Positions 1-56,023 of a DNA stretch of 64,000 nt are shown piece by piece. The position numbers and the translations under genes are program-made. The DNA is from Nanobdellota archaeon. Lineage in GTDB: Archaea > Nanobdellota > Nanobdellia > Pacearchaeales > GW2011-AR1. The stretch covers positions 36,417-100,416 of the forward strand of contig JBBSYD010000032.1 of NCBI GenBank assembly GCA_038045425.1. The letters are read 5' to 3'. The notes beneath the pieces were generated by a model that had not been told where the DNA came from, made no database searches, and saw only the letters and a list, made by a program, of their open reading frames with translations. How positions within the stretch are numbered: the stretch's first letter is position 1; every line of letters starts with the position of its first letter.

Positions 1-401
1 TTAGTTTTGTATGCTTCTTCAAGAATTTCTTTTATAAATTCATAATATTTCGTGTTTGTAACATCCTTGAATTTGACAATTTTGATAAGTTTTTTCTTTT
101 CTTCAGGCAATTTTTCTACAATTTCTTTTATTTCTTTTTCTTTTTCGTCTCCTTTTCTTAGAGCGACTTTCCATGCTCTTGTTTTGTTATATTTATCTAG
201 AACCTCTAAATTTATGGCTTGAAGTCTGTCTCCAATCACTACAATAATATCTTCTTTTGTATTTTCTAATGCCCAAAGAATATATTTTTCTATATTTTCT
301 TTTGTAAAATATTTATTTCCTAAGCTAATTCCTATCCAGATATTGAATTTTTTGGATTCGACTTCTTCCTTTGTGCAACCCAAGTAGTTTATGATTTTCA
401 T
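1..401 (-). CDS. cyclodipeptide synthase (CDPS)-like protein, N-terminal 133 aa only; the C-terminus lies beyond the window start
   Basis: Reverse-strand ORF starts at ATG 399-401 (MKIINYLGC...) and runs off position 1. The motif IWIGISLGNKYFTKEN matches the AlbC catalytic region ALIGISAGNSYFSQKN (G-x-S catalytic Ser, then N). LWA...DIIVVIGD parallels AlbC LQWA...DVVYVD. Confidence 0.55.
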   Translation of the reverse strand, partial: MKIINYLGCTKEEVESKKFNIWIGISLGNKYFTKENIEKYILWALENTKEDIIVVIGDRLQAINLEVLDKYNKTRAWKVALRKGDEKEKEIKEIVEKLPEEKKKLIKIVKFKDVTNTKYYEFIKEILEEAYKT

Positions 402-475
402 AGAGATATTATAAATTAAGAGGTTATAATATTTGCGGAGGATAAGTTTATTAGTTAATTAAAACTCTTGGAATT

Positions 476-697
476 ATGGAATTTAGTAAATGGGCAGTTG
501 TGGCTGAACTATTTTCGGGAATATGCTTTATGGTTTCGGCATTGTTTTTAAGTGGAATGACTGGGGCAGTCATTGGAACGGATTTTCAACAGAATAGAAC
601 ATATGGATTAGCGTTTTTAGTTTTGGCAGTGTCCGCGGCTTCTTTATTTATTCTCTTTAAAAGAAAGACAAGCAAAGATATTAAAACGTGGAATTAA
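476..697 (+). CDS. small membrane protein, 2 predicted TM helices
   Basis: ORF with two hydrophobic stretches. Confidence 0.4.
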   Translation: MEFSKWAVVAELFSGICFMVSALFLSGMTGAVIGTDFQQNRTYGLAFLVLAVSAASLFILFKRKTSKDIKTWN

Positions 698-707
698 TCT
701 GTTATAA

Positions 708-1613
708 ATGACTATTGGTGATTGGATATTAATATTTTTAGTTGTTGTTTGCTTGGCAGTTTCTGGATTTTTATTTTATTCTCAGATTAGTGCTAAAACT
801 ATAGAGTATAAGCAATTTGTTTCTAATGTTACTGTTAACATGACAAATAGTAGTATTCAATTTTATCCTAATATGAGATTCTCGTCTAGTGATTTAACGT
901 ATAGTCTTGATTCTGGATGTAATGAAAATAGAAAAAAGTCTGCGATTGATGCTATGAAATTATTGGAAAGTGAAATTCCAGTGACGTTTACTCTTGGGAC
1001 TGAAAATCCAGAGATTATTATTGAATGTAGTTCAGAAGAACCTGAAATTGCTGAAAAGAATCATGTAATTGCAGGAGCGGCTAAACCTAATAATATAATA
1101 AATGCAACTAAGTTTTTTGTTATAGAAAATTCTAATATTTCTTTGTATAAGGATGAAAGTTGTGATAGGCCATTGGTGGCATTGCATGAAATGTTACATG
1201 CATTTGGTTTTGACCACAATAGTAATGAAAATAGTATAATGTATCCTATAACTAGTTGTGAAGAGGAAATTGATTTGGATATTATTAATGAGTTGAAAAG
1301 ATTGTATTCGTATGCGAGTTTGCCTGATGTTGTTATTGAAAAAGTTGTTGCTAATAGTTCTGGAAGATATATTAATTTTGAGATAGAAATAGGAAATCAG
1401 GGATTGATTGATGCGAAAAATGTTCAGTTGGACATTGTGTCTTCTGGAGAGAGCGCGAAAGTTTATGAGTTAGAAGATATTGAAGTTGGAAGGAAAAAAA
1501 TACTTTCTGTTCAGAATATTAAAGTTAAAGATGCTGAAAATGTTGAATTTAGAATAATTATGAACGAAGGGGATTTGAATATGGCAGATAATACTGCTAA
1601 ATTATATTCATAA
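708..1613 (+). CDS. membrane-anchored zinc metalloprotease, metzincin-like
   Basis: N-terminal TM helix. HEMLHAFGFDH fits the extended HExxHxxGxxH zinc-binding motif and is followed by SIMYP (Met-turn). Confidence 0.7.
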   Translation: MTIGDWILIFLVVVCLAVSGFLFYSQISAKTIEYKQFVSNVTVNMTNSSIQFYPNMRFSSSDLTYSLDSGCNENRKKSAIDAMKLLESEIPVTFTLGTENPEIIIECSSEEPEIAEKNHVIAGAAKPNNIINATKFFVIENSNISLYKDESCDRPLVALHEMLHAFGFDHNSNENSIMYPITSCEEEIDLDIINELKRLYSYASLPDVVIEKVVANSSGRYINFEIEIGNQGLIDAKNVQLDIVSSGESAKVYELEDIEVGRKKILSVQNIKVKDAENVEFRIIMNEGDLNMADNTAKLYS

Positions 1614-1623
1614 GTTTATCAAA

Positions 1624-1812
1624 AGCACGATGTGCTACCTCGACTTTTAAGTCATGGTTTGTAACAAGCACTCGTGCCATCAAGGACTTCATGTCCTTGA
1701 CTGCCATCGAGAATTTCAATTCTCGAGGTTTGGATGCCAAGAAAACCTTTGGTTTTCTGGCATAGAGAAATCTAAGAAGATTTTCTATGCTCGCGAACGT
1801 TATAACGTTCGT
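1624..1812. other. array of about 7 consecutive perfect hairpins; candidate structured ncRNA or palindrome array
   Basis: gcacgatgtgc; gcactcgtgc; caaggacttcatgtccttg; tcgagaatttcaattctcga; gccaagaaaacctttggttttctggc; catagagaaatctaagaagattttctatg; cgaacgttataacgttcg. Locally raised GC. Overlapped by a minus-strand ORF that is unlikely to be coding. Confidence 0.35.
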
Positions 1813-1832
1813 GACATATAAAAGTTTAAAAA

Positions 1833-2228
1833 GTGGTTTTATTTTGGAGGTGTGTGGCAAGGGCAGATACACGATTAGCATATTATCATTCTTTAGCAGC
1901 AATTCAAAGAGGATTTAAGTCGGATGAGGACAGAAGAGAATTTGTTGCTGAATATCCGGTTATTGCAGGAGAGATATTTTATTATTTAAATGATAGAACC
2001 TTAGGTAAAATGGTTGCTAGAACTTATGCTACGCATCCACGGGCTGAAATGCGGGAGCTTGCAAAGGTTACGAAATTGGTTTTTATGGAAAGAGATAGAA
2101 TTAAGGCTATGAAAGAATCTAGCTTGAGTGTTAGTTTAAATATGAATAGTGTTCCATTGCTTTCTCTTCAAGAAGAGGGAATTGAATTGAGTGAGGAAGA
2201 GAAATTGGATCGAAGAGTTAAGTATTAA
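1833..2228 (+). CDS. hypothetical protein; start uncertain
   Basis: 131-aa ORF flanked on both sides by hairpin arrays. Confidence 0.4.
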   Translation: MVLFWRCVARADTRLAYYHSLAAIQRGFKSDEDRREFVAEYPVIAGEIFYYLNDRTLGKMVARTYATHPRAEMRELAKVTKLVFMERDRIKAMKESSLSVSLNMNSVPLLSLQEEGIELSEEEKLDRRVKY

Positions 2229-2328
2229 ATTATATTTTTTTAATGTGAATTATAACTTGGAAATTATTATTAAATAAAATAGGGATTATTATCTAAGAAG
2301 AGACATTTGTTTAATTGCAAAAGTTTTG

Positions 2329-2510
2329 AGAGAGCAAGCTTTAAACATCAAGAACAAAGTTCTTGAGTGCCTCAAGAAGTTTAATAAACTTCTTTCAGCA
2401 TCGAGGATTTTTGATCCTCGTGGCTTAAAACTTCTACAGGAAGTTTTAAACTTCAAAATCTTTTAGATTTTGAGGTCTAAAGCTTGCAGGGAGCAAGCTT
2501 TAAATATCTC
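2329..2510. other. second array of about 6 perfect hairpins, plus a 20-nt direct repeat (gagagcaagctttaaacatc / gggagcaagctttaaatatc)
   Basis: caagaacaaagttcttg; gaagtttaataaacttc; cgaggatttttgatcctcg; ggaagttttaaacttc; caaaatcttttagattttg; aaagcttgcagggagcaagcttt. Confidence 0.35.
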
Positions 2511-2535
2511 TTTAATCTTGATGATTTGAAAGAAG

Positions 2536-3039
2536 ATGCCAGAAAAAGATGTATTAATAAAAGAGAAGCTTGAGCATGTCGGTTTGTTCGACTATGGAGA
2601 GTTTTATGCTTATGCGTATAATTGGTTTAAGAATGAAAACTATAGTATAGTTGAAAATAAATATACTGAAAAAGCAGGAGGAAGTTCGAGAGATATAGAG
2701 TTTGAATGGACTGCTGGAAGTAAATTAAGTGATTACTTCAAATCTGAAATAAATTTCAAGATTGTAGTTGATGGAATGAGCGATGTAGAAGTCGAGATTG
2801 ATGGAAAGAAGAAGAAGATGAACAAGGGAAGAGTTAGAATGGAGTTCAAGGGAGTTTTGCATAGAGATATTGCTGGAAAGTATGAAAGTACTGGATTTTA
2901 CATGTTTTTAAGAGGAATTTATAATAAATATGTTATTCCTAATAGAGTTGACGTAATGGAAGACAAAGTTAAGGATGATACTCGTGACTTTAAAGAGAAA
3001 TTGAAGGCATTTCTCGAAATGAGTGGAAAGAGAAGTTAA
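2536..3039 (+). CDS. hypothetical protein
   Basis: 167-aa ORF with no recognisable motif. Confidence 0.45.
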   Translation: MPEKDVLIKEKLEHVGLFDYGEFYAYAYNWFKNENYSIVENKYTEKAGGSSRDIEFEWTAGSKLSDYFKSEINFKIVVDGMSDVEVEIDGKKKKMNKGRVRMEFKGVLHRDIAGKYESTGFYMFLRGIYNKYVIPNRVDVMEDKVKDDTRDFKEKLKAFLEMSGKRS

Positions 3040-3115
3040 TTTTTTACATAATATCTATCGTCGACAAATATCTAACCATACAAATATTTATAAAATAAAA
3101 CTATATGTGAATTGT

Positions 3116-4477
3116 ATGAAAAAGATTTTAATTTTAAGTTTAGTGTTATTACTTCTTATAAGTGGAGTTAGCGGATATACTATTTCCAAAGAAATGAAGT
3201 CGGAGGTTATTTTGGCAGAGGTTGGAAATCCAGTTGTTTTTGATTTGACTATTAATGGAGGTGCAGGAGATGATTTTGCAGAGGTTTATTCGTTATTAGG
3301 ATTAAGATTTGATCCTCAGGCAACATTTAATCTTCCTGGAAGTATTACTAAAGAAGTTAAGGCATATGCTGGAAAGGATTATTTGAATCATCCTGGAAAT
3401 TATATTGTAGATTACTATGTTAGAGGTTCTTTGGGGCAGGTAATGGATAGTTTGTCATTTAGAGTTGTTTCTTTGAAGGATGCAATTGCAATAATTCCTA
3501 GCAATTTAGGATATGATGATACTATTATAGAATTAAGCGTACAAAATACTCAAAATGCTTATATGAATGACGTAGTGTTGACTTTTGATTCTGAATTTGG
3601 TGTTTCTCAACAGAAGCTTAGTTTGGAACCATTCGGGAAAGCTAATGTAAGTATCCCTGTGGATGCAAGTAAATCTAAGAAATTATCTGCTGGAAGATAT
3701 ATTATTACTGCTTCTATTGCAATGGAAGATGCAAAAGTTAAGGTTGAAGGTGTTGTTAATTATCTTGAGAAAGAAGGAACTTCTATAGTTACTGAAAAAG
3801 ATGGATTTATCATTAGAACAACTAAGATAACTAAGAAAAATGAGGGAAATGTTCCTGTGCAAGATAAAATTGAAATAAGTAAAGACGTATTGTCTAGATT
3901 GTTTACTACTTTTTCCGATTCTTCCGATAAATCTGAAAGAAGCGGATTAGGAGTTAATTATATTTGGACTAAGCCATTGCAACCAGGAGAGTCTTGGGTT
4001 GTTTCTAGCACAACTAATTATACCTTGCCATTCTTCCTATTGCTTTTGATAGTTGTTGTAGCAGTATTGGTAAATCTCTATTCTAAGACTAATGTTGTTG
4101 TAAGTAAGCAAGTTTCATATGTTAAAACTAGAGGAGGAGAATTTGCTTTGAAAGTTAGAATTGGAGTTAAAGCAAGAAGTCATGTTGATAGAATACAGGT
4201 TATTGATAGATTGCCTGGAATGACTAAATTGTATGAGAAGTTTGGAATAAAGCCAGACAAGATTGATCCTATGACTAGAAGAATATTCTGGAATGTGTCT
4301 AGATTGCAAGCGGGAGAAGAAAGAGTGTTCTCTTATATTATTTATTCAACTGTTAATGTAGTTGGAAGATTTGAATTGCCTGCTACAACTGCAATATATG
4401 AAAAGGATGGAAAGACACATGAAGTTTTATCCAATAGAGCATTCTTTATGAGTGAGATGAGTTCGCAGGAAGAATAA
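3116..4477 (+). CDS. secreted or cell-surface protein with signal peptide and C-terminal TM anchor
   Basis: ATG at 3116 gives MKKILILSLVLLLLISGVSG (signal-like). A hydrophobic helix LPFFLLLLIVVVAVLVNLY lies near residue 330, followed by a further domain. Confidence 0.5.
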   Translation: MKKILILSLVLLLLISGVSGYTISKEMKSEVILAEVGNPVVFDLTINGGAGDDFAEVYSLLGLRFDPQATFNLPGSITKEVKAYAGKDYLNHPGNYIVDYYVRGSLGQVMDSLSFRVVSLKDAIAIIPSNLGYDDTIIELSVQNTQNAYMNDVVLTFDSEFGVSQQKLSLEPFGKANVSIPVDASKSKKLSAGRYIITASIAMEDAKVKVEGVVNYLEKEGTSIVTEKDGFIIRTTKITKKNEGNVPVQDKIEISKDVLSRLFTTFSDSSDKSERSGLGVNYIWTKPLQPGESWVVSSTTNYTLPFFLLLLIVVVAVLVNLYSKTNVVVSKQVSYVKTRGGEFALKVRIGVKARSHVDRIQVIDRLPGMTKLYEKFGIKPDKIDPMTRRIFWNVSRLQAGEERVFSYIIYSTVNVVGRFELPATTAIYEKDGKTHEVLSNRAFFMSEMSSQEE

Positions 4478-4524
4478 GATTTTTATTTCGGAATGTTTAT
4501 AAATAATATTAGTCTTTAGATTAT

Positions 4525-4728
4525 ATGCAAAATGCTGAGTCTAATTATGATTTCTATATGAGCGAGGATCTTAGTTCTTATAGTGGGGAATGGGTGGCGA
4601 TATCAAATAATAAGATAATCTCTCATGGGAAAGATGTGAGAATGGTTGCAAAAGAGGCAATGATTGTTTGCGGGAATAAGAAGTTTTTACTCTCGAAGAT
4701 TCCTTCAAATGAGACATTGATATTTTAA
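4525..4728 (+). CDS. small DUF5678-like protein, partner of the retropepsin-like protease
   Basis: 67 aa containing GEWVAISNNKIISHG. The stop is immediately followed by the protease gene. Confidence 0.45.
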   Translation: MQNAESNYDFYMSEDLSSYSGEWVAISNNKIISHGKDVRMVAKEAMIVCGNKKFLLSKIPSNETLIF

Positions 4729-4730
4729 AA

Positions 4731-5165
4731 ATGACTTTAACTTATAGGTATAAGGAAGTGTATAGAACTAATAATATTCAAACTAGGACTCCTTCCATCC
4801 CTATGACTTTGTCTGGAAAGGGGATTAAATTTGAATTTACAGTCCTTATTGATTCTGGAGCAGATATTTCGGCAATTCCAAAACAGGTGGCTGAATTATT
4901 AGGATTGGATTTATCTGGGAAAAAAGAAGAAACATTCGGAATTGGAGGTTCTGCTTCTGCAGTTTCATCTAATATTCGTATAGATTTTGGAAAAGTTCAT
5001 GAAAAATATTCTGTGGATTTACCAGTTAAAGTAATTTTATCAGATTATGATTTTCCACCATTAATTGGAAGATCTGTATTTTTTGATAAGTTTAGAATAA
5101 CTTTTGATCAAGCTAAGTTTAATATTCATTTGAAAGCTAATACTAACAATAATCTTCTTGGCTAG
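4731..5165 (+). CDS. retropepsin-like aspartic protease
   Basis: LIDSGADISAIP carries the D-S/T-G-A active-site signature and a second GIGG region. Two-gene module with the upstream small ORF. Confidence 0.65.
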   Translation: MTLTYRYKEVYRTNNIQTRTPSIPMTLSGKGIKFEFTVLIDSGADISAIPKQVAELLGLDLSGKKEETFGIGGSASAVSSNIRIDFGKVHEKYSVDLPVKVILSDYDFPPLIGRSVFFDKFRITFDQAKFNIHLKANTNNNLLG

Positions 5166-5287
5166 AATAGTTAATTATATTCGGTAAATCTATTATTTCA
5201 AACAATAACCTTTATATATATATTCCAAAATTGTGAGTTTAAACCCCGCATAGGAAAATATAAATATAGATTATTACTTGTTAATTA

Positions 5288-6094
5288 ATGCATAAAAAGA
5301 GTGAAATAATATTTAGATTAAAAGAGTTAGAAAAGGAATTAGGAAGAAGACCTGTAAAAACAGATAGTCCTTCGCTTTATACCTTGTCAAGAAAATATTT
5401 TGGTACTTGGAATAATATGATGACTGAAGCAGGATATCAATGTAAATTATTTCAAATTCCTGTAACTCCTAAAGAGATTACTTCAGATTTAAGTTATTTT
5501 TTAGGATTAATGTCTACTGATGGGCACATACAAGTAATAAAACAAAGATGGCTGTACCGTGTTATGATGTATACTAGCGAAAAAGAAGAAGTAGAAATGA
5601 TATTAAATATTATTAAAAAGTTGTTTAGTTATACTGCTTCAGTTAGAGCAAGAAAAACAGGATTTTCTAAAAGACCAAATTATGAAATATACATATCTTC
5701 TAAAAAGATTGCATTATTTTTAAATTCGTTAGGAATTCCGATAGGAGCTAAATCCTATAATCTTTTAGTTCCTAAGATGTTCTTTGAGAATAAGCAAGAA
5801 TATTTTTGGGATTATTTAAGGGGAGTCTTTGATGGAGATGGTTCAATTGTTTTTAGTAATAATAATTTTAGCTTTAAAATCTCATCTGGTTCAGTTAGAT
5901 TTCTTGAGGGAATAAATAAGATTCTTATAGAGAAAGGATTTAAGAATTTTAAGATTTCTAAACAAGATGAGTATGTTTGGATTCTAAGAACAAATATAAA
6001 GGAAAATATTAAACAACTATATTCTTGTATTTATAATAATTCTTCGTTTTTTTATCCTCGAAAACAGTTAAAATGGTCTAAGCAGTATATTTAA
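5288..6094 (+). CDS. LAGLIDADG homing endonuclease (double motif) with N-terminal HEAR-like domain
   Basis: LGLMSTDGHI and LRGVFDGDGSI are two LAGLIDADG-type motifs. N-terminal YFGTWNNMMTEAGY resembles the homing-endonuclease-associated repeat. Confidence 0.7.
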   Translation: MHKKSEIIFRLKELEKELGRRPVKTDSPSLYTLSRKYFGTWNNMMTEAGYQCKLFQIPVTPKEITSDLSYFLGLMSTDGHIQVIKQRWLYRVMMYTSEKEEVEMILNIIKKLFSYTASVRARKTGFSKRPNYEIYISSKKIALFLNSLGIPIGAKSYNLLVPKMFFENKQEYFWDYLRGVFDGDGSIVFSNNNFSFKISSGSVRFLEGINKILIEKGFKNFKISKQDEYVWILRTNIKENIKQLYSCIYNNSSFFYPRKQLKWSKQYI

Positions 6095-6111
6095 AAATGT
6101 AAGTTTTTACA

Positions 6112-6271
6112 TAATTACATACCCTCCGTAGCTCAATGGCAGAGCGCCCGGCTGTAGTTAATATAACTAGCACAGACTTTCCATATGGAAACAGGATGAA
6201 GTGCGAACAGAGCATTTTCGTTAGAAAATAGCAGAACCCGGGCTACCCAAGTTCGATTCTCGGCGGGGGGA
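6112..6271 (+). tRNA. tRNA-Tyr (anticodon GTA) with an 89-nt intron after position 37 (intron about 6148..6236)
   Basis: Acceptor ccctccg/cgggggg with C1-G72 (archaeal Tyr identity). U8A9, D-arm gctc-aatggca-gagc, anticodon arm cccgg-ctgtag[intron]c-ccggg, T-arm ccaag-ttcgatt-ctcgg (one mismatch), discriminator A. Confidence 0.7.
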
Positions 6272-6280
6272 TTTTTTACG

Positions 6281-6841
6281 ATGGTTGAAAAAATACTTAC
6301 AACTGAAAAGGAATTGGAACTTGCAGAGTATTATGCACTTAATGGAGGGTTTTCGGAAGAGTATATGAATAGATGCTTGAATAATGCTGAAGATTTGGCA
6401 AAAAAACAGGGGAAAAATATATCTCTGGAATTAAGAAGAATAAGATCTATTTGGGATGAAACTTGTCAAATTCCACAAACTCTAGATATACTGAAAAAAA
6501 TTGCAACACATAGAAAAATTGATATAAATGAAGAAATTAAAAAAGTTGAAGAAAAATTCTGGGGATATTCTTTTAATGATTTACCTGTAATTAAAATTAA
6601 TAAAAAAGAATTTCAAGTTCTTTATGCAATTGCAAGAGATGGAAGAGATAATTTAGAAAGATTAAAAGATTTGTTTGAAGGACAAGTTATTATGAAAATT
6701 CTTGATAAGTTAGAAATGTCGGGATTGATAAAAATAGAATATCGAGACAAAAAGATTTATGGGTTTATGGAAACTACAAAAGGAAATGAATTGTTAGAAA
6801 GTGAAGAATATTCTAAATGGTTTAAGGAATGTGGGGATTAA
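6281..6841 (+). CDS. hypothetical protein, possible C-terminal winged-helix domain
   Basis: 186-aa ORF ending EFQVLYAIARDGRDNLERLKDL...ILDKLEMSGLI. Confidence 0.4.
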   Translation: MVEKILTTEKELELAEYYALNGGFSEEYMNRCLNNAEDLAKKQGKNISLELRRIRSIWDETCQIPQTLDILKKIATHRKIDINEEIKKVEEKFWGYSFNDLPVIKINKKEFQVLYAIARDGRDNLERLKDLFEGQVIMKILDKLEMSGLIKIEYRDKKIYGFMETTKGNELLESEEYSKWFKECGD

Positions 6842-7660
6842 ATGAAGCTTAAAGTAATGCAGTATAATATTTTGCATGGTTTTTATAATCCTCTTCACAA
6901 TAAGGACATGTCTTTTGATTTTGAAGGTGATCGATTAATGGCTGCACAGAAAGCAGTTAAAAAAGAGAATCCTGATGTATTGGTTCTAAATGAGGCATGT
7001 TTTGCTGAAAAAAGTAGATGGAGTATTTTAATGGATTATCCGAAATTGTTTAATTATCCTCATCATTATCATGCTCCTAGCGGTTATGAATGGGGAATTT
7101 CAGTATTATCTCGTTTTCCAATAGTTGAAAGAGAGAACTATAGTCTTCCCAATTGTCCATTTGCTAGAATAACTCTTGACTTGAAAGGCTACAAGTTGGG
7201 ACTAAATGTTTTGCATCCACATCCTACTTTAACTGAAGAGGAAAAAATGAGATTTGTTCAGTCTTCATTAAGAGATATAAAACATCCTTGTTTAGTGGTT
7301 GGAGATTTTAATGCTCTATCAGATGAGGACGACTATAATTTTGATAAACTTTATAGAGGATTTTCTAACTTTGATAAGCATGCTTCAAATACTGTGAAGG
7401 AATTTAAGAAACGATTGCCTATTAGGGCTATACTTGATAAAAGACTAAGAGATACTTTTATTGTTGCTCGTAATCCATGGAATTATACAATTCCGACAGA
7501 CCATTGCTCTAAGAATAAAGATTCTGCTATGAGAATAGATTATATATTTTGTTCAAATGATATTGGAGTGAAAGATGCTTATGTAGTAAAGAATAATTTT
7601 ACTGAAAAAGCTTCGGATCATTATCCTATTGTTGCAGTATTAGATATTAAGAAGAAATAA
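6842..7660 (+). CDS. endonuclease/exonuclease/phosphatase (EEP) family protein
   Basis: Motifs VLVLNEA, VVGDFNALSDED and SDHYPIVAVLDI are characteristic of the EEP fold. Confidence 0.7.
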   Translation: MKLKVMQYNILHGFYNPLHNKDMSFDFEGDRLMAAQKAVKKENPDVLVLNEACFAEKSRWSILMDYPKLFNYPHHYHAPSGYEWGISVLSRFPIVERENYSLPNCPFARITLDLKGYKLGLNVLHPHPTLTEEEKMRFVQSSLRDIKHPCLVVGDFNALSDEDDYNFDKLYRGFSNFDKHASNTVKEFKKRLPIRAILDKRLRDTFIVARNPWNYTIPTDHCSKNKDSAMRIDYIFCSNDIGVKDAYVVKNNFTEKASDHYPIVAVLDIKKK

Positions 7661-7751
7661 AATATTCGATTTATAGATAGGGGGATTTTTTATATAAATA
7701 ATCCCTTGTTTTTTTGGCAATGTTTATTAAGTGAATTAAAGTAAATGCAAT

Positions 7752-7958
7752 ATGAAAAACGATGAATGTATAATATACCTGACAACTAAACGTGGCTCTA
7801 CTCAGATTTACCGCAGAGATAAAAAAGGTTGGACACAAAAAAGTTCAAAAGGCATAGTTCGCAGAATGACTGCAGAACAACTTTTATCTCATTTATTGCC
7901 TCCACTTGCAACTAAGAAAAAAAGTAAAGTAACTATTAAAGTAGAGAGAAAAAAGTAA
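7752..7958 (+). CDS. small basic hypothetical protein
   Basis: 68-aa K/R-rich ORF. Confidence 0.3.
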   Translation: MKNDECIIYLTTKRGSTQIYRRDKKGWTQKSSKGIVRRMTAEQLLSHLLPPLATKKKSKVTIKVERKK

Positions 7959-8267
7959 ACAATCGTTAATTAATTAAAATACAGATTTTAGCAAAATTAA
8001 TCTCCTCTTGGCAAAAGTATTTTTTAGGGTAGTTTTAAATATCCGAGTGTGTTTGAAATAGTATGAAGGACATACCTGGATTGAGTGAAGATGAGCTTTT
8101 GGGAAGAGGAATTAAAGGTAAACCCAAGAAGAAAAGGATTAAGATTATAAAAGACGATGAAGAAATTGTTGTGAGGAAATAATATTTCTAGGAGGGGAAT
8201 TTTAGAAGTAGCGAGTAATACAGCTCTGCTATATATAGCATAATTGCTTGGAAATTATGGACTTAAA

Positions 8268-9695
8268 ATGAACAAATCTAAACTTAATGTTTTTATATTT
8301 TTATTTGCACTAATGGGTATTGCAATTGTGTTATCTATGCAATTTGCTGTTGCGTATAATTCGCCTGCAACTGTAAATCTTGGAACTGCAGGTAATTTTG
8401 TTATATTATCAAAGGCAGGAATAACAACTACTGGAACTACGGCTATTGTTGGAAATTTGGGAGTGAGCCCAATTGATAGTACTGCAATGACTGGATTTGG
8501 TTTGATAGCAGATTCTTCTAATAAATTTTCTACCTCTTCTTTGGTAACTGGAAAGATATATGCATCAGATTATACTTCTCCAACTCCATCTGTTATGACT
8601 AGTGCTGTGAGTGATATGGAAACTGCATACACTAATTCTGCTGGAAGAACTTTACCAGATGCTACTGAATTGGGTGCTGGAGATATTAGTGGAATGACTA
8701 TTGCTCCTGGATTGTATAAGTGGGGAACTGGAGTTCATATTGATAATAGAGGCGTTACTCTTTCTGGAAACTCGAATGATGTTTGGATATTCCAAATATC
8801 CCAGGATTTAACGGTGGATAGTGCTGCAATTATAACTCTAACTGGCGGGGCACAGGCAAGGAATGTATTCTGGCAAGTCGGTGGAGGCACAGGAGTTATT
8901 CTTGGAACAACGTCTGTATTTAATGGTAATATCTTAGCAATAGCTGGAATAGTAATGAATACTGGAGCAACATTAAATGGGAGAGCATTGGCACAAACGG
9001 CAGTCACATTGGATGCCAATATGGTTAGAGTACCTTCAAATTTAGTAGAGGTAATAGTTTCTGATGAGAGAAATAACTCTGAAATAAATAATTCTTCAAA
9101 TTCTACTTCTCGTGAAAATTCGAGTTTAGTTAATGATTCTGTAGTTGTAAATAATCAGGAAAGTAATGGTGGTTCATCTTTAAATGATAATGGAATAGGA
9201 CAAGAATTAAGTCAAAGAATAGAAGAGCTAAGAACTGAATTTAGATATGGAAACTTTACAACTTCTCTGGGAGAGTATTTGAATGTTAGAGAAATTGGCG
9301 CGGGGATAAGAGAGTTAAGGGAAAATAATATTTCTGTTAGGACTAGATTAAATTTAACTAAAGTTGGGAATAATGACTCTAAACTAGAAGTTGAATTAAG
9401 CAATGGAAGAAATGCTGAGATAAAAGTAATGCCTTCTGCTGCATCGGAAATTGCGTTAGCAAGACTTAAATTGAAGGTATGTAATGAAACAAATAATTGT
9501 ACAATTGAATTGAAGGAAGTTGGCAAGGGAAATGATACTAGAGTTGCCTATGAAACTCAGGTTGAAAGACATTATAGGATTTTAGGAATATTTTCAGCAA
9601 AAGCGCAGAACAAGATTCAGATTGATGCAGAAACAGGAGATGTTATTAGCGAGAATAAGCCTTGGTGGGCATTTATAAGTTCAAAGCAAGATTAA
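8268..9695 (+). CDS. secreted DUF3494 (ice-binding-like) family protein with Asn/Ser-rich linker and C-terminal domain
   Basis: Signal/TM at the N-terminus. NLGTAGNFVILSKAGITTTGTTAIVGNLGVSPIDSTAMTGFG matches the DUF3494 consensus (LGTAANFAVLAGS...GDLGVSPG..ITGF). Confidence 0.6.
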   Translation: MNKSKLNVFIFLFALMGIAIVLSMQFAVAYNSPATVNLGTAGNFVILSKAGITTTGTTAIVGNLGVSPIDSTAMTGFGLIADSSNKFSTSSLVTGKIYASDYTSPTPSVMTSAVSDMETAYTNSAGRTLPDATELGAGDISGMTIAPGLYKWGTGVHIDNRGVTLSGNSNDVWIFQISQDLTVDSAAIITLTGGAQARNVFWQVGGGTGVILGTTSVFNGNILAIAGIVMNTGATLNGRALAQTAVTLDANMVRVPSNLVEVIVSDERNNSEINNSSNSTSRENSSLVNDSVVVNNQESNGGSSLNDNGIGQELSQRIEELRTEFRYGNFTTSLGEYLNVREIGAGIRELRENNISVRTRLNLTKVGNNDSKLEVELSNGRNAEIKVMPSAASEIALARLKLKVCNETNNCTIELKEVGKGNDTRVAYETQVERHYRILGIFSAKAQNKIQIDAETGDVISENKPWWAFISSKQD

Positions 9696-10097
9696 AATCT
9701 TAAACCACATTCTAATTCCAACTTTTCCATTTGTTCTGAGGAATTTGCAAATAGGCGAATCATGGGAAATCCTTCTTGATTATCTGAAGTTACGGCTGTG
9801 CCAGCTTGAGCAAGACCATTATCTAAGAAAACGTTGCTTCCAGAAAAAGTATAGTATTTTGTTTCGTCGATTACAGAACCTAAACCTCTTGAAATCGTAG
9901 GAGTTGCAAATAAGTTAATTCTTTGAACCATTGTCTGATATCTTTCAGCAGGTAATTCTTTCAGAACGCCTGAAAGATTTCTAGTATTCGTGATTCCTGT
10001 TGGAGTATAATGCCTTTCTACTAATCCAAGAGCCATGCTCTTTTATCTTTATTTGAGGTTTTTAAATAAATCGGTGAACTAGTTAAGTTTAAGAGAG

Positions 10098-11297
10098 ATG
10101 TGCTTGAATAATATCATGGTAGTATTTGATAAGGGAAGGGCAGTGTTTAAGCATGGGCCTGAAGATTTTATCGTTGAAGAAGTACAATTGGATGGAAAAA
10201 TATCTGAGATTTCTAGTTTGATGTCTGCGTTCGAGAACGCAGTTGTTGATTTTGGTAATTTGAATGTTAATGATAGAAGAGATTTCATTATGTTTGATCT
10301 TGAGAAAATAAATATTGATCATCTTAGCGCGATGAGTGAATTGTCTGAGAAGATTAAAAAACATCCTCATGAGATAGGCTACGGAGGAAGTAAGGATAAG
10401 GTTGCATGGACGTGTCAGAGGATTTCTGTGTTTAATCCTGATATGGAAAAGATAAAAGTATTTTCTCATCCTGGAATAATTCTTAAGAATTTTAGATGGG
10501 GGAAACATAAAATAAAGATTGGAGACTTGAAAGGAAATAGGTTTAGAGTAACTTTAAGAAATTTAGATGGGGCTGCGCTTAAGGTGTTAAGTAGAATAAG
10601 AAATACAGAATATATTCCTAATTTATTTGGAATGCAGAGATTTGGTTCTGTTAGAAATAATAATTTTCAAATAGGAAAATTAATTTTAAAGGGCAAATAT
10701 AAAGAAGCTATTTTTGCCTATCTAACTGGATATGGAGATAAAGAGGGCAAGGAAGTAAGAGATGCAAAGAGAAAATTAAAAGAAGAAAAGAATATTATTT
10801 CTGCAAAGGGTTATTTTCCAAAGGAACTTCATATGGAGCATAGGATAATAGAATATTTAGGTAATAATAAAAATTATTTTCTTGGGGCAATTGGAATGAT
10901 CGGAGAAAAAGTTCTTCTGATTATGTGCCAATCCGTTCAGAGTAGAATATTTAATGAGATTATTGAGAGAGCAATGGAAAGGGGAGTTGCTTCCAATACT
11001 GACTCTCTGGTTATTCCAGGATATGACGTTGGTAATTCGAAGAATAAGTTTGCAGAGATTGAGGAGGAAATTTTGAAAGAAAATGATTTAACTTGGGAGG
11101 ACTTTAGGAATTCGGACATACCTTTTCTAAGCCTAAAGGGGGCGGAGAGAAAAGCATTCCTTAGAGTTAGAGATTTGGAAATAGTTACTGAAGAAGATGA
11201 GATATTTGGGCCTGCAAAGAAAATAGTAATGTCCTTTGTTCTTGATTCTGGAAGCTATGCTACGACTTTCTTGGAATATTTTTTTGAATTGGAATAG
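10098..11297 (+). CDS. truD: tRNA pseudouridine(13) synthase TruD/Pus7
   Basis: PEDFIVEE at the N-terminus and GYGGSKDKVAWTCQRISV (GxKD catalytic Asp motif) are typical of TruD. Confidence 0.7.
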   Translation: MCLNNIMVVFDKGRAVFKHGPEDFIVEEVQLDGKISEISSLMSAFENAVVDFGNLNVNDRRDFIMFDLEKINIDHLSAMSELSEKIKKHPHEIGYGGSKDKVAWTCQRISVFNPDMEKIKVFSHPGIILKNFRWGKHKIKIGDLKGNRFRVTLRNLDGAALKVLSRIRNTEYIPNLFGMQRFGSVRNNNFQIGKLILKGKYKEAIFAYLTGYGDKEGKEVRDAKRKLKEEKNIISAKGYFPKELHMEHRIIEYLGNNKNYFLGAIGMIGEKVLLIMCQSVQSRIFNEIIERAMERGVASNTDSLVIPGYDVGNSKNKFAEIEEEILKENDLTWEDFRNSDIPFLSLKGAERKAFLRVRDLEIVTEEDEIFGPAKKIVMSFVLDSGSYATTFLEYFFELE

Positions 11298-20317: not shown

Positions 20318-20917
20318 ATGGAAATATACCTATATAAGATGAAATCAGAATTAAGTGAAGCACAGAAAATTATCCTTAGACTATTCAGAGAACCGTTGAT
20401 TAGATATAATAGTAGAAATATAAGTCAAGAAGTGGGAATAAGTCATGCTGGAGCATTTAAGATATTAAAGAAATTAGCAGATAAGGATATTGTTAATCCT
20501 GAAAGAATAGGAAGAGCTGTTGTTTATACATTGAATAAGGAAAATCCTCTTTCTTTTAGGGAAGTTGAGATGGCATTGACCATTGAAGCTCAAGAACATA
20601 GAATCTGGCTTGAAGAATTTAAAAGTCTTGAAAATAAATCAGAATTTATTATTTTATTTGGTTCTATATTAGTAAATGAAAAAAATGCAAGAGATATAGA
20701 TTTGTTGGTTGTTGCAAATGAAGATAAGTTTAAGGAAATAAAGGATATTCTTAATGAGAGGAATAAAATACTTAACAAAAAAATACATCTTATTCTTCAA
20801 GAGCAGAAAGATTTTATGTTGGACTTAAACAATAAAAAAGGAGTTATTTGGGGTGCTATTAAGAAAGGCATTGTTTTATTTGGACAAGAGAAAATAAGTA
20901 AGATGGTGATAAAATGA
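20318..20917 (+). CDS. HTH plus nucleotidyltransferase-domain protein
   Basis: N-terminal wHTH. ILFGSILVNEKNARDIDLLVV is a nucleotidyltransferase (G[SG]...D.D) motif. Confidence 0.5.
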   Translation: MEIYLYKMKSELSEAQKIILRLFREPLIRYNSRNISQEVGISHAGAFKILKKLADKDIVNPERIGRAVVYTLNKENPLSFREVEMALTIEAQEHRIWLEEFKSLENKSEFIILFGSILVNEKNARDIDLLVVANEDKFKEIKDILNERNKILNKKIHLILQEQKDFMLDLNNKKGVIWGAIKKGIVLFGQEKISKMVIK

Positions 20918-22019: not shown

Positions 22020-22310
22020 ATGAGTGAAGAGATAAATAAAATAAAGCAAAAGATAGTTCCAGTGCTTAGAGCACACAAAGTTAGCAAGGCAGGGATTTTT
22101 GGTAGCTATGCAAGAGGAGAACAAAAAAAGAAGAGTGATGTAGATATTTTAGTTGAGATACCTGATGATAGAAGTCTTTTTGGAGTGATTGAATTAAAAA
22201 TCGCACTTGAAAAAGCGTTAAGAAGAAAAGTAGATTTAGTTGAATATGAATTAATAAGAAAAGAGCTCCGAAAAAATATACTCCATGATGAGATACCTGT
22301 GGAACTATGA
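22020..22310 (+). CDS. nucleotidyltransferase (MNT-type antitoxin)
   Basis: GIFGSYARGEQKKKSDVDILVE. A 4-bp overlap with the downstream HepT gene indicates an operon. Confidence 0.7.
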   Translation: MSEEINKIKQKIVPVLRAHKVSKAGIFGSYARGEQKKKSDVDILVEIPDDRSLFGVIELKIALEKALRRKVDLVEYELIRKELRKNILHDEIPVEL

Positions 22311-22642
22311 AAAGAGATTATAGATTATATGTTGATGACATTAGGGCTTGCATTTTGACTATTGAAGATTATTTAAAAGATATTTCAGAAAATGATTTTA
22401 AAAACAATATTGAAAAGCAAGATGCTGTAATTAGAAGAATTGAAATAATTGGAGAAGCAAGTAGAAATATTCCTCGTGCATTAAAGGAAGTAAATCGAGA
22501 TATTCCTTGGGAGATACTTGCTAATTTTAGAAATTATATTGCACATTCGTACTTTGAAACAAGTTTAGATAGGATATGGAAAATTGCAAAGTATGATATT
22601 CCTAAGTTAAAATTGCTATTTAGAAAAATAAGATTAGTCTAG
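22307..22642 (+). CDS. HepT/DUF86 family toxin (HEPN)
   Basis: FRNYIAHSY carries the R-x4-HxY HEPN motif. Confidence 0.7.
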   Translation: MKRDYRLYVDDIRACILTIEDYLKDISENDFKNNIEKQDAVIRRIEIIGEASRNIPRALKEVNRDIPWEILANFRNYIAHSYFETSLDRIWKIAKYDIPKLKLLFRKIRLV

Positions 22643-34967: not shown

Positions 34968-37631
34968 TTATAAATTTGAGCTATAAGGTAAAGATTTTAT
35001 ATAATTCTCCATAAATTCCCAATCTGGATTACCTTTTTTGTCTTTTGGTAGTTTAATCTTCATTTTTTTCAGTTGAGAATTAACTATTGCTCTGCCATAG
35101 GAGAATTTATCTTTCATTTCAAAGTTGAATATTGTAATTAGGAACATAGCCACATCTTTTGTAATCTTATTGTCTTTTGTTCTTATAATATTAATCTTAT
35201 TTCCTGTGAAAAATGGTTCTTCTTGGTAAAATGCTCTAACTCCCTCTGCTCCGATTGTTATGCAATCCCCAATTTCAGGTATTTCCTCATCATGTAAAAT
35301 CTTACCAGCATAACCATTATTAAATGCACTACGAGTAATGTAATTAACTCCTCCCATAGAAAACTCTACGTTTACTTTATGAACAGGTGTTCCCAAAGTA
35401 ACATCAAAAATATCATTTACATTAAACTCTTTCCAGTTGTCGGTATTTATCTTTTTGTTTTCGTTCTTTTCAGAATAAATCTTATTCTCATTCAGAATCT
35501 CCATAAAAGTTAATTCGTCAATATTTTTGTCTAAGATATCAAGTTTTAATTTTATCTTGAATATAATGTAGTCTTTTATACTCTTTGTAAAAAGATTAGA
35601 TTCAAGATATGTATAATCTGTCTTGCTGTGTGCCTGAATAATCCACTCATCTCTTTGATTTATTTTAGTTTTAACGAGATGAAAACCATCACTAAATTTA
35701 TCTGGATTATTTAATTCCTCTAAAAGTTTCTTCCTTATATTTGCCCATTTATCCAAGGCGTCAGTTCTACCTCTATTTTTAGATAAAACCAAACCATCAT
35801 CTTCTAAATTATAAAAGACTATTTCTTTATTATTGTGCGGTTTATTTGTTTCAAAAACAGCTATTGCAGTGTGAGTTGTGGCGTTTGGTCTAAACAAGTC
35901 TTTTGGCATATTAATAACACATTTTAAGGTATGCTTTGATAAAATTCTCTCTCTGGTGTCCTCGTCTTGCATATAAGTTGAAAGAGGAGCAATAATCACA
36001 CCAAACCTACTAACTTTGTCTAATAAATTTTCTAAGAATTGGATTTCTTTTTTAGTTGGATTATCTTTATTATCTTCTCCCCCATAAGGCGGATTTATGA
36101 AACCTATTGTCGGAGATATTCCATCTTTTTTAAGATTACCTAAGATTTCATTTGCTTCTTTTGAAAATGAATCTACGTTGAATATCATGGATTTACCATC
36201 TCCTCTAAAAAGCATATTAGATATTGAAAGAGCATACATGGTAGAGCTTTTCTCAAATCCGATTAACTGGTGTTGTTTTATATTTTTAATTAATTCCGCT
36301 TTGTTTCTTATGTTTGATTGATTAATTTCTAAGATTATTTTATTCATAGCAGATATTAAAAATGCTCCAGTTCCACAGCACGTATCAAGTATTACATCAT
36401 TATTCTTTATTTCCACTAGTTCTGTAAATAGTTTAGTTATATGACTTGGTGTTAAAACTATTCCATTTTTCACATTGCTTATTCCTGCATATCTCAAAAA
36501 TTCTTCATAAAATTTACCTAAGATATCATAATTTGTTTCTTTAGAGAATAAGGGAATAACATTTTTATCCAATTCTTCTAAAATTTCTTTTAAGATGTCT
36601 GTATTGTTTAGGTCTTGGTCTGTCTTGATAAAGGATAGTTCATTTGTTAAAACTTCTATTTTGTCCTTTGGTATCTTCTCATCTTTTAATATTTGAGTTA
36701 TTGTAGTTGGAATATTATTTATTATAGTCTTAGGATTCCAACCAATATATCCATCTTTAAAGTCGTTCTTATCTCCTCTGGTAAATAAACAAATCATTAA
36801 ACCGCTAAGTAAAACAGGTCTTTTTTGAGAATCTAAAGAACGAAGTTTATTGTTTATCTTCTTTGAAGATTCAGATACTTCTCTAATCAATCTTTCCATA
36901 TCTACATTTTCAAAAAATGAGAGGTATTCTTCTTCGTTCAATATTTCTTTAGTTTCTATATCTTTTATCTCGTTCTTATTTATAATAAAAGTAGAAATAA
37001 GATGGCTATACAAATCAAGGATATTACCAGATACGGCTATCCCAACAATCTTCCAATTCTTCAAATACTTTCTAGTTGTTTCAGGTAAGCTACTAACATA
37101 AGTATCTGTAAAGAAAGACAGATAATGTTTTATTCCATCTATTGCATAATTTTCAGGGTCGTTTCCTTCTTTAGACTGATGTTGCTTAATTGTATCTTTA
37201 TTTTCAAGCAAAATTATTAATTTGTTTGCTTCATTGATATATAACAAATCTGGCTCTCCACGATTTCCAGTTTTTCTTTTACTTGCTTTATCTAAAATAG
37301 ATTGAATGACTTTATTATCTGTTTTTTTAATATCCCAAGAGTTCTTATATTTTTTATTATCTTTTATAAAATTATATAAAAATATATCTTTCTTCGCTTC
37401 ATTTTTTCTTTCGTTACTCATGTCTTTTCCTCCAAGAATTTCTCTATAAGCTTTTCCACTTTGTCCGATTTGTTTATTGAGTTTTCTTCGCAGAAGTCGT
37501 TGAATCTTTTGAGAGTTTCTGGAGCTAGAGTTACACTTAAATGCCCCTTTTTCACCTCTCCTCTCCTCATAGCTTAATGATAAGTTATTACTTTTTATAT
37601 CTTGCGTATCCATATTATTAATGTTACTCAT
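34968..37631 (-). CDS. Type IIG restriction-modification enzyme (single chain: PD-(D/E)xK endonuclease, gamma-class N6-adenine methyltransferase and target-recognition domain)
   Basis: N-terminal GEPDLLYI...LIILLENKD is a PD-ExK motif. VLDTCCGTGAFLISA is MTase motif I and GFINPPYGG is motif IV (NPPY). The C-terminal roughly 230 aa are HsdS-like TRD. Size and domain order resemble MmeI. Confidence 0.7.
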   Translation of the reverse strand: MSNINNMDTQDIKSNNLSLSYEERRGEKGAFKCNSSSRNSQKIQRLLRRKLNKQIGQSGKAYREILGGKDMSNERKNEAKKDIFLYNFIKDNKKYKNSWDIKKTDNKVIQSILDKASKRKTGNRGEPDLLYINEANKLIILLENKDTIKQHQSKEGNDPENYAIDGIKHYLSFFTDTYVSSLPETTRKYLKNWKIVGIAVSGNILDLYSHLISTFIINKNEIKDIETKEILNEEEYLSFFENVDMERLIREVSESSKKINNKLRSLDSQKRPVLLSGLMICLFTRGDKNDFKDGYIGWNPKTIINNIPTTITQILKDEKIPKDKIEVLTNELSFIKTDQDLNNTDILKEILEELDKNVIPLFSKETNYDILGKFYEEFLRYAGISNVKNGIVLTPSHITKLFTELVEIKNNDVILDTCCGTGAFLISAMNKIILEINQSNIRNKAELIKNIKQHQLIGFEKSSTMYALSISNMLFRGDGKSMIFNVDSFSKEANEILGNLKKDGISPTIGFINPPYGGEDNKDNPTKKEIQFLENLLDKVSRFGVIIAPLSTYMQDEDTRERILSKHTLKCVINMPKDLFRPNATTHTAIAVFETNKPHNNKEIVFYNLEDDGLVLSKNRGRTDALDKWANIRKKLLEELNNPDKFSDGFHLVKTKINQRDEWIIQAHSKTDYTYLESNLFTKSIKDYIIFKIKLKLDILDKNIDELTFMEILNENKIYSEKNENKKINTDNWKEFNVNDIFDVTLGTPVHKVNVEFSMGGVNYITRSAFNNGYAGKILHDEEIPEIGDCITIGAEGVRAFYQEEPFFTGNKINIIRTKDNKITKDVAMFLITIFNFEMKDKFSYGRAIVNSQLKKMKIKLPKDKKGNPDWEFMENYIKSLPYSSNL

Positions 37632-42633: not shown

Positions 42634-42748
42634 GCGCTAGTAGTTTAGTGGTAAAACGGCTCGTTGCCAACTCTAGGAGTCTAAAGAACTACAATTGTTT
42701 AGACTAGGTAAAAACGAGCAGTCTCGAGTCCGATTCTCGACTTGCGCA
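42634..42748 (+). tRNA. tRNA-Gly (anticodon GCC) with an intron of about 44 nt at or next to the anticodon loop
   Basis: Acceptor gcgctag/cttgcgc (one U-U mismatch), D-arm gttt-agtggta-aaac, anticodon stem gctcg/cgagc separated by about 44 nt, loop ttgccaa, T-arm tcgag-tccgatt-ctcga, discriminator A. Confidence 0.6.
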
Positions 42749-45864: not shown

Positions 45865-45935
45865 GGCCCATTAGGCTAATGGTAGACCGGTTCGTTTACA
45901 CCGAACATGCGGAGGTCCGATTCCTCCATGGGCCA
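45865..45935 (+). tRNA. tRNA-Val (anticodon TAC)
   Basis: Acceptor ggcccat/atgggcc (perfect), anticodon arm gttcg-tttacac-cgaac, T-arm ggagg-tccgatt-cctcc, discriminator A. The D-stem is imperfect. Confidence 0.65.
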
Positions 45936-45938
45936 CTT

Positions 45939-56011: not shown

Positions 56012-56023
56012 TTTGATTATTGG

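Follow-up and report, generated by a model that had tools for sequence, protein, structure and literature searches.

The first 401 nucleotides of the 64,000-nt stretch of DNA analysed here (the window; positions 36,417 to 100,416 of contig JBBSYD010000032.1, assigned to a Nanobdellota archaeon) carry the 5' part of a gene for a cyclodipeptide synthase (CDPS), which we recognised by translation, by Pfam and NCBIfam matches, and by residue mapping. The gene lies on the minus strand (1..401), where an ATG at 401..399 opens 133 stop-free codons (3..401). The open reading frame (ORF) runs past the start of the window, and the two spare bases ('aa' in the reverse complement) agree with Asn134 of the full protein described below. 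Encoded within the window are the nucleophile Ser26 in a GISLGN loop, Asn29, the pocket residues W22, G24, V55, G57 and F111, and Asp58 of the Ser/Asp dyad; residues 23-36 read IGISLGNKYFTKEN. Past position 1, a gene for a 143-aa GNAT acetyltransferase (Pfam Acetyltransf_1, 36.5 bits) converges on the CDPS gene, the 3' ends of the two overlapping by 13 nt. With a probability of roughly 80%, we read window 401..1 as the 5' portion (58%) of a CDPS gene of the XYP subfamily that is intact, has 230 codons and is located on the chromosome of a DPANN archaeon from Hainich groundwater.

The fragment was searched against ~5.8 billion proteins and proved 100% identical over its length to a protein of 230 aa (P0001), which is GenBank entry MEK6927283.1, 'MAG: tRNA-dependent cyclodipeptide synthase [Nanoarchaeota archaeon]' (MAG, metagenome-assembled genome). 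By exact look-up, this protein was found on 11 contigs. The six loci returned, each from a different ENA/Logan sample or run of the Hainich groundwater wells, all encode the same 230-aa protein, and all look-ups together recovered the locus from seven samples or runs. Between positions 1..10401 of one returned locus (L001, ENA assembly ERZ1292626) and window 1..10401, read as its reverse complement, there are 0 mismatches, and a second locus (L002) differs at 4 positions. The window itself corresponds to ~36.3-100.3 kb of a 108,108-bp contig (ERZ1292629, Hain_H43_01um_R1_63). The CDPS gene is internal to this long contig and is cut by the window edge only. Its other 97 codons, including those for Y167, E171, I174, T188, Y190 and P191, were recovered from the identical contig (L001 10402..10693), in line with a first-pass annotation of the window, which had called the gene truncated by the window edge and had placed its remainder upstream of position 1.

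Taken alone, the fragment scored 39.6 bits against PF16715 (gathering threshold 27) and 53 bits against TIGR04539 (cutoff 45), and it matched the sequences of ParcuCDPS crystal structures, which are named 'Cyclodipeptide synthase', at an E-value of 1.4e-21; its similarity to CDPSs is far beyond chance. For the full-length protein, the scores rose to 57.5 bits (PF16715) and 77.1 bits (TIGR04539) against the same thresholds. An AlphaFold2 (AF2) model built on 31 homologues reached a mean predicted local distance difference test (pLDDT) score of 95.3 and a predicted template modelling (pTM) score of 0.90. It shows a single Rossmann-fold domain that resembles the catalytic domains of class-I aminoacyl-tRNA synthetases (aaRSs) and is superposable on solved CDPSs. 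In a Foldseek search of the PDB, all 50 of the 50 best matches of the model were CDPS structures, headed by ParcuCDPS of Parcubacteria RAAC4_OD1_1 (7QAX/7QB8; TM score 0.80) and followed by the enzymes of P. gingivalis and Streptomyces, YvmC, BtCDPS, Rv2275, and AlbC.

The catalytic residues point in the same direction. By HMMER and in a MAFFT alignment of 123 sequences, S26, D58, Y167, E171, Y190 and P191 stand opposite S26, D58, Y167, E171, Y191 and P192 of ParcuCDPS. Mutagenesis has shown that the activity of that enzyme requires S26, D58, Y167 and E171, and Y191 is a conserved active-site residue (Sutherland et al., PMC7613923). The nucleophilic serine sits in the G-x-S-x-G-N loop typical of the family, as Ser26 in GISLGN, and the predicted Ser/Asp dyad is completed by D58, which is invariant across the clade. 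Among the 123 relatives, D58, Y167, E171 and Y190 are invariant, and S26 is conserved save in a small group of Cys variants. HMMER alignment with AlbC (3oqv) pairs query residues 16-176 with chain residues 27-187, an offset of 11, so that S26, Y167 and E171 correspond to S37, Y178 and E182 of AlbC. CDPSs are divided into the subfamilies NYH (N40/Y202/H203, AlbC numbering) and XYP (X40/Y202/P203) (PMC7613923, PMC11610984); the triad found here, N29/Y190/P191, with a proline after the catalytic tyrosine, is that of XYP.

The possibility of a class-I aaRS-like protein outside the CDPS family was considered and is ruled out by the profile scores, the fold and the catalytic residues, as well as by the lack of HIGH and KMSKS signatures: the 230-aa sequence contains no HxGH and no KM[ST]K[ST] string, and the Pfam and NCBIfam results for the protein include no aaRS family. 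The first-pass annotation, which had proposed a CDPS with a catalytic serine equivalent to that of AlbC, is therefore in agreement with profile, fold and active site alike. The PF16715 search it had suggested places both the fragment and the full-length protein above threshold. It had also named beforehand two outcomes that would speak against a CDPS, namely loss of the C-terminal Tyr and Glu residues and assignment to aaRS-like proteins lacking the CDPS signature; Y167, E171 and Y190 are present, and no such assignment resulted. From this conservation we infer that the protein is enzymatically active.

Because the mechanism of the family is established and the catalytic residues are conserved here, the enzyme would be expected to work by ping-pong chemistry. 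The aminoacyl group of a first aminoacyl-tRNA would enter the P1 pocket and pass to Ser26, polarised or activated by Asp58, and a second aminoacyl-tRNA would deliver its residue through P2, giving a dipeptidyl-enzyme. Tyr167, Glu171 and Tyr190 would then aid acyl transfer and intramolecular cyclisation, releasing a 2,5-diketopiperazine. Neither ATP nor aaRS activity would be used.

The comparison with AlbC made in the first-pass annotation captured the likeness to CDPSs; the closest characterised relative, however, is ParcuCDPS (CDPS 90) of Parcubacteria bacterium RAAC4_OD1_1, a member of the candidate phyla radiation (CPR), which makes cyclo(His-Pro) and cyclo(His-Glu) (PDB 7QB8 and mutants; PMC7613923, PMC5816076). 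Both proteins have 230 aa and share 37.9% identity over 206 aligned residues. They belong to the XYP subfamily, ParcuCDPS is the best fold match of the window CDPS at the TM score given above, and both have an identical catalytic set that includes the unusual Ser26/Asp58 dyad, Y167, E171 and the Tyr-Pro pair. The host of ParcuCDPS is likewise an ultra-small organism with a reduced genome from groundwater-type habitats. The two differ in that ParcuCDPS is bacterial and falls into a separate clade, whereas the CDPS of the window is archaeal and has a GNAT partner. AlbC of Streptomyces noursei, which serves albonoursin biosynthesis, shares the fold (Foldseek E 4e-8) and, presumably, the ping-pong acyl-enzyme chemistry. 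In contrast, its identity to the window CDPS is only ~17% by structural alignment (phmmer E 2.8e-4), it belongs to the NYH subfamily (Y202-H203 instead of Y190-P191), and it pairs with the cyclodipeptide oxidase AlbA/AlbB, none of whose genes occur at our locus.

Pocket positions were taken from Gondry et al. 2018 (AlbC numbering: P1, 33-35-65-67-119-185-186-200; P2, 152-155-156-159-204-206-207). The mapping is validated by ParcuCDPS, for which it returns exactly the published motifs GAYAWELY (P1) and FEWKYTR (P2). For the window CDPS, it gives WGVGFIYT for P1 (W22, G24, V55, G57, F111, I174, Y175, T188) and INNAGGL for P2; a product different from that of ParcuCDPS is therefore expected. The His-selecting residues Y55/E174/Y189 of ParcuCDPS are replaced by V55/I174/T188, and the YEY triad occurs in the ParcuCDPS clade only. 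Since the window CDPS lacks this triad, an identity as a cyclo(His-Pro) synthase, as for the top PDB match, is ruled out, and the protein is thus not to be filed as a synthase of His-containing cyclodipeptides. The residues V55/I174/T188 instead resemble ParcuCDPS variants engineered as Y55V/E174L/Y189L, combinations of which switch that enzyme to Leu and Phe (PMC7613923). Among 32 published motifs, the best match to P1 is FGLGC[IV]F[FM] of the XYP synthases of cyclo(Leu-Ile) and cyclo(Leu-Leu) (cLI/cLL), with a BLOSUM sum of 17 compared to 13 for the next best. These BcmA-type enzymes (CDPS 85 and 86 of Gondry et al. 2018), from Actinobacteria and Gammaproteobacteria, have the nearest P1 motif, a likeness by motif only: Gly at positions 2 and 4, aliphatic residues at 3 and 6, and aromatic residues at 1 and 7 are shared, whereas their P2 motifs FRYRGFS and FSYRGFG are unrelated to INNAGGL. 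Given the hydrophobic P1 pocket, the first substrate is probably an aliphatic residue of the Leu/Ile type and not histidine, and the product is probably a hydrophobic cyclodipeptide other than cyclo(His-Pro). The second substrate is not predictable. Some cLI/cLL-type CDPSs sit in clusters with oxygenases, as in bicyclomycin biosynthesis.

The host is archaeal, in agreement with the NCBI label Nanoarchaeota (DPANN). The 108-kb contig carries genes for MCM, a thermosome subunit, TruD, TrmB, archease, RtcB, L35Ae and AsnC-type regulators, and the CDPS gene, located 36 kb inside it, is physically linked to these archaea-specific information-processing genes, with archease, RtcB and AsnC-type helix-turn-helix (HTH) regulators to one side of it and TruD, MCM, thermosome and L35Ae to the other. 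Composition is even, with a GC content of ~0.29-0.35 (0.28 for the CDPS gene compared to 0.317 for the window). Rfam reports five tRNAs in the window, of which two span 115 and 150 nt with long inserts, are not reported by ARAGORN, and probably carry introns. The earlier proposal of a CDPS in a small-genome archaeon is thus consistent with the gene content of the contig. One might argue that a CPR fragment has been misassembled into an archaeal contig, or that the contig has been misbinned, since the closest characterised relative and many homologues come from CPR bacteria sharing the habitat. We consider this explanation practically negligible and dismissed it, as archaeal genes flank the CDPS gene on both sides, the same junctions recur in the six returned loci, the composition is uniform, and a 60%-identical relative (P0008) lies between genes for TFIIB, S8e and LSM.

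An exhaustive phmmer search with the CDPS against 1.84 billion representatives at 50% identity gave 361 matches at E <= 1e-3 and 53 at E <= 1e-30; the family around the protein is small. Genomes of GTDB species representatives contributed 69 loci, ~17 of them titled Woesearchaeota, Pacearchaeota, Nanoarchaeota or 'archaeon', while the remainder were mostly Patescibacteria/CPR and a few had dubious MAG labels. For four relatives the neighbouring genes identify the domain: P0008, as mentioned, and P0024 (L15e, ATP-dependent DNA ligase, TrmB) are archaeal, whereas P0011 (L9, L27, LytR) and P0034 (L9, Era-type GTPase, MurA) are bacterial. Full-length identity amounts to 59.6% between P0001 and P0008 and, across domains, to 49.1% between P0001 and P0011 and 52.8% between P0024 and P0034. 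In a neighbour-joining tree, the window protein groups with P0002, P0004, P0005, P0007 and P0008 (189/200 bootstraps), a clade in which the one member that has informative flanks is archaeal, and ParcuCDPS falls into a separate, all-bacterial clade (200/200). Since archaeal and bacterial sequences interleave at several places, the tree points to inter-domain transfer, probably on more than one occasion, within a CDPS radiation that would be mainly confined to CPR bacteria and DPANN archaea. This lends support to the horizontal acquisition that the first-pass annotation had suggested. Its remark that archaeal examples are few is true of the literature searched, in which no paper on CDPSs of DPANN, Woesearchaeota or Nanoarchaeota was found; archaea are likewise not mentioned in the 2018 family overview (Gondry et al.). 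It does not extend to the databases, given the ~17 DPANN species-representative genomes and the annotation already present in GenBank.

Such a transfer could in principle have left a silent or decaying remnant of a gene from a CPR bacterium, without function in the archaeon. DPANN genomes hold many bacterial-type genes, and no recognisable canonical tailoring genes lie nearby. This scenario appears very improbable, however, because the ORF is intact and encodes an identical protein in the six samples or runs, all catalytic residues are kept, and the GC content of the gene matches the host. Moreover, the clade of the window protein (95% bootstrap) retains both gene and partner at ~60% identity, which implies long purifying selection.

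Several relatives deviate from the window CDPS in active site or architecture. Five loci (L064 6001-6702, L067 1984-2685, L069 20-685, L071 272-976 and L073 1622-2947) encode homologues with Cys in place of the nucleophilic Ser, in the motif I[PA]IC[LV]GN[KR]FF; four of them group together at 180/200 bootstraps, and the four members checked keep D58, Y167, E171, Y190 and P191. S26C is the best-yielding active-site mutant of ParcuCDPS (PMC7613923). In three archaeal Cys-variant members, a class-I S-adenosylmethionine (SAM) methyltransferase gene lies directly downstream of the CDPS gene, and L073 encodes an apparent 441-aa fusion of the CDPS homologue with a class-I SAM methyltransferase. SET domains are classically protein-lysine methyltransferases. 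Proteins with this domain are encoded directly beside CDPS genes in 8 CPR/DPANN loci and fall into two ORF families, the first at L019 2664-3140, L023 7066-7584, L033 6702-7154, L034 6668-7132, L048 4718-5215 and L057 6695-7168, the second at L011 3813-4250, L023 4982-5377 and L037 6675-7067; PF00856 was above threshold for one representative of each (L019 and L011). Natural CDPS-SET fusions of 374-389 aa also occur (P0101, P0104 and P0153), and no paper on a SET-domain partner of a CDPS was found in the literature searched. Further architectures comprise a CDPS with a C-terminal class-I SAM methyltransferase (P0196, P0203 and P0220), an N-terminal phosphoribosyltransferase domain followed by a CDPS (P0187), and CDPSs with extra regions that have no Pfam match (P0183, 624 aa; P0199, 716 aa; P0087, 321 aa).

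We found no gene for a P450, cyclodipeptide oxidase, methyltransferase, prenyltransferase or 2-oxoglutarate (2OG) oxygenase within 10 kb on either side of the CDPS gene, which therefore lacks the adjacent tailoring enzymes of a canonical CDPS gene cluster. Upstream of position 1, where the first-pass annotation had placed any tailoring enzymes and had suggested looking for a P450, oxidase or methyltransferase, none of these is present; in their place stands the GNAT, the sole candidate. All ORFs of ~70 loci, whose flanks extended up to 6-10 kb, were searched by phmmer with this GNAT. L079, L025, L027, L032 and L054 contained orthologues (E 1e-23 to 1e-44), in each case less than 100 nt from the CDPS gene, as in L001; the sole other match was marginal (E 3e-4) and 725 nt away. 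Overall, the GNAT gene lies beside the CDPS gene in 5/5 clade members with flanking DNA, in three orientations, and in four more distant loci. At the P0006 locus (L084), for example, it is upstream of and co-directional with the CDPS gene with a 4-nt ATGA overlap, while it is convergent at the P0005 locus, where it is cut by the contig end, and at the P0007 locus, where the GNAT ORF is short at its N-terminus. Apart from this pair, the window contig and L079 have different genes in the flanks. The pairing is kept in all clade members checked, across three orientations and with differing flanks, which supports a conserved two-gene module of CDPS and ~143-aa GNAT. In the P0007 locus (L082 858-1360; Hainich well H51), the short GNAT is called as a 104-aa ORF without the N-terminal ~45 residues, and a 63-aa ORF upstream of it is unrelated to GNAT; the partner may have been truncated or degraded here, or the contig, which has 2x coverage, may contain a sequencing error.

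Two alternative views of this partner deserve attention. According to the first, the GNAT is a housekeeping enzyme of the RimI/Nat type, acetylating the N-termini of proteins, whose adjacency is incidental, and the CDPS acts alone like most XYP enzymes. The best named model is indeed rimI, the folds matched include RimI and N-terminal acetyltransferases, ~60 of the 69 related loci have no such GNAT, and the partner may be dispensable at the P0007 locus, given its missing N-terminal part. We nevertheless find this view rather doubtful: with the one marginal exception, every copy of the subfamily in the ~70 loci is a close neighbour of a CDPS gene, it accompanies the CDPS in both domains while other flanks change, and the subfamily is rare, with 4 proteins at E <= 1e-10 in a word-indexed search of 5.8 billion proteins that has limited sensitivity.

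The second alternative holds that CDPS and GNAT together make something other than a plain diketopiperazine, either a linear N-acetyl-dipeptide, formed if the GNAT N-acetylates the aminoacyl-tRNA or the dipeptidyl intermediate, or a cyclodipeptide acetylated on a side chain of the Lys/Orn type. It would account for an adjacency that is strict and independent of orientation in archaeal and bacterial hosts alike, and for the habitual coupling to group transfer that is suggested by SET-domain and class-I methyltransferases fused or adjacent to CDPSs of the same radiation. In addition, a genome survey found N-acetyltransferases near CDPSs more often than any other biosynthetic domain, none of them characterised (PMC5767969), and the GNAT is weakly akin to acetylators of alpha-amino groups (RimI, phosphinothricin and arsinothricin acetyltransferases). 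The invariance of the cyclisation residue Y190 and of the other catalytic residues speaks for normal cyclisation, however, and profile, sequence and fold matches identify no substrate of the GNAT. Furthermore, P2 of the window CDPS has Asn where most relatives have Glu or Asp, and Lys is not among the residues incorporated by CDPSs in the available part of the 2018 overview. We therefore regard such a product as quite unlikely. In the reading that we favour, with CDPS and GNAT as a conserved module, the GNAT would most likely, judging from gene context, act on the product, act on a precursor, or give self-protection.

GNAT genes near CDPS genes have been noted in genome surveys as uncharacterised neighbours (Skinnider et al. 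2018, PMC5767969; Iyer/Aravind 2010, PMC2922099, for Rickettsiella grylli). As here, the GNAT-fold gene lies immediately beside the CDPS gene, and the association is contextual. CPR and DPANN genomes are outside the coverage of these surveys, and the partner in Rickettsiella has been described as a GNAT-fold peptide ligase, whereas that of the window CDPS is of the acetyl-CoA type with an Acetyltransf_1 signature.

A number of points weigh against our reading of the locus as a CDPS with a hydrophobic product, a dedicated acetyltransferase and a history of inter-domain transfer. Once a diketopiperazine has formed, no free alpha-amine is left for acetylation. Attempts to narrow down the substrate of the GNAT by NCBIfam, by a PDB sequence search, and by an AF2 model with Foldseek returned generic small GNATs only: rimI at 43 bits (cutoff 86), phosphinothricin acetyltransferase at an E-value of 6e-5, and, for a model with a pLDDT of 71, RimI, PAT, polyamine acetyltransferases and YpeA. 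By these sequence and model comparisons, the partner appears to be a generic small GNAT. The GNAT-linked CDPSs differ in their P1 motifs, so that a single common substrate is not obvious, and neither the 10 longest proteins from the 150 best CDPS representatives nor the 4 GNAT homologues included a fusion of CDPS and GNAT. With respect to the product, P2 has no counterpart among the 32 published motifs, and the prediction uses 8 pocket positions, at just 3 of which the Leu/Ile motif is identical; those who devised the motif scheme describe predictions as unreliable beyond the characterised groups (Gondry et al. 2018). As regards distribution, the domain of most related loci was taken from MAG record titles, some of which are unreliable ('Gammaproteobacteria', 'Victivallales'), the tree was built by neighbour-joining only and without an outgroup root, and no characterised archaeal CDPS was found in the literature searched.

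On the window side, the CDPS gene is separated by an AT-rich spacer of 74 bp (402..475), read from the sequence, from a divergent ORF for a 73-aa membrane protein (476..697, plus strand). This spacer is the presumed promoter region of both. It contains AAATATTATAA at -33..-23 from the CDPS ATG on the CDPS strand, which would fit a candidate archaeal TATA box, although such strings are expected by chance at 31% GC; no Shine-Dalgarno-like sequence is evident before the ATG, as would fit a leaderless mRNA. The 73-aa ORF is followed by a gene for an M10 metallopeptidase with a CARDB-like domain. Neither gene recurs beside CDPSs elsewhere, and we dropped both as parts of the system for this reason. 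Past the GNAT on the other side, genes encode a 142-aa hypothetical protein, archease, small hypothetical proteins, the AsnC-HTH regulator, a metallo-beta-lactamase (MBL)-fold protein, RtcB and, 9.5 kb off, a radical SAM protein. The hypothetical proteins beyond position 1 (142, 94, 91, 200, 75, 116 and 218 aa) have no Pfam matches.

Additional features were observed in the remainder of the window. The two long-span tRNA matches of Rfam lie at 6122-6271 and 42634-42748, both on the plus strand. A free-standing ORF of 268 aa (5288-6094), which has HNH_repeat matches and faint LAGLIDADG ones, ends 28 nt upstream of the former. The contig also encodes, a short way beyond the window, the tRNA splicing ligase RtcB and its cofactor archease. 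The tRNAs reported by ARAGORN, at 45865-45936 (plus), 56021-56096 (minus) and 60329-60399 (plus), are all tRNA-Val; the anticodon is TAC in two of them and CAC in the third. The sequences of the two with TAC differ considerably, so that the anticodon call of the tRNA at 56021-56096 may be wrong. An 887-aa protein with an N6_Mtase domain (34968-37631, minus strand), possibly a fused restriction-modification enzyme, adjoins a 410-aa DDE_Tnp_1 transposase (37655-38887, minus strand), after which comes a MazE-like antitoxin ORF. At ~22020-22642 on the minus strand (L007 7571-8193), HepT-like (HEPN) and nucleotidyltransferase (MNT) genes overlap by 4 nt in a toxin-antitoxin arrangement; two further Polbeta/NTP_transf_2 ORFs lie near this pair, one at ~20318-20917 and one, of 618 aa, just past the 3' end of the window. 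A protein of ~475 aa with a Pfam Ice_binding domain (PF11999; 8244-9695, plus strand) has 475 aa in one assembly and 460 aa in another, and the product of the ORF at 3023-4477 has 484 and 453 aa, respectively. These differences suggest population-level length variation in surface-type proteins.

Overall, the enzyme family, its mechanism and its CPR members are already known, and the automatic annotation in GenBank is correct; the finding thus extends the known picture without changing it. What the locus offers is a complete and apparently selected CDPS gene that is chromosomal in a DPANN archaeon and travels with a GNAT. A more far-reaching interpretation, which is speculative and which we think unlikely, is that the CDPS-GNAT pair constitutes a self-contained pathway, mobile between the domains, of ultra-small symbionts, with an acetylated cyclodipeptide or an N-acetyl-dipeptide as its product. 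Should it be true, the pair would tailor a CDPS product in a way for which no characterised example exists, possibly at a residue that bears an amine and is not incorporated by any known CDPS. The pair would then be one branch of a CDPS radiation specific to CPR and DPANN, in which SET-domain and class-I methyltransferases are recruited as well. This would further imply small-molecule roles for SET domains and metabolites that act in the interaction between symbiont and host. The genomes of DPANN archaea and CPR bacteria are very small and provide little biosynthetic capacity, and any secondary-metabolite gene that they retain is therefore a candidate mediator of their obligate interactions with hosts.

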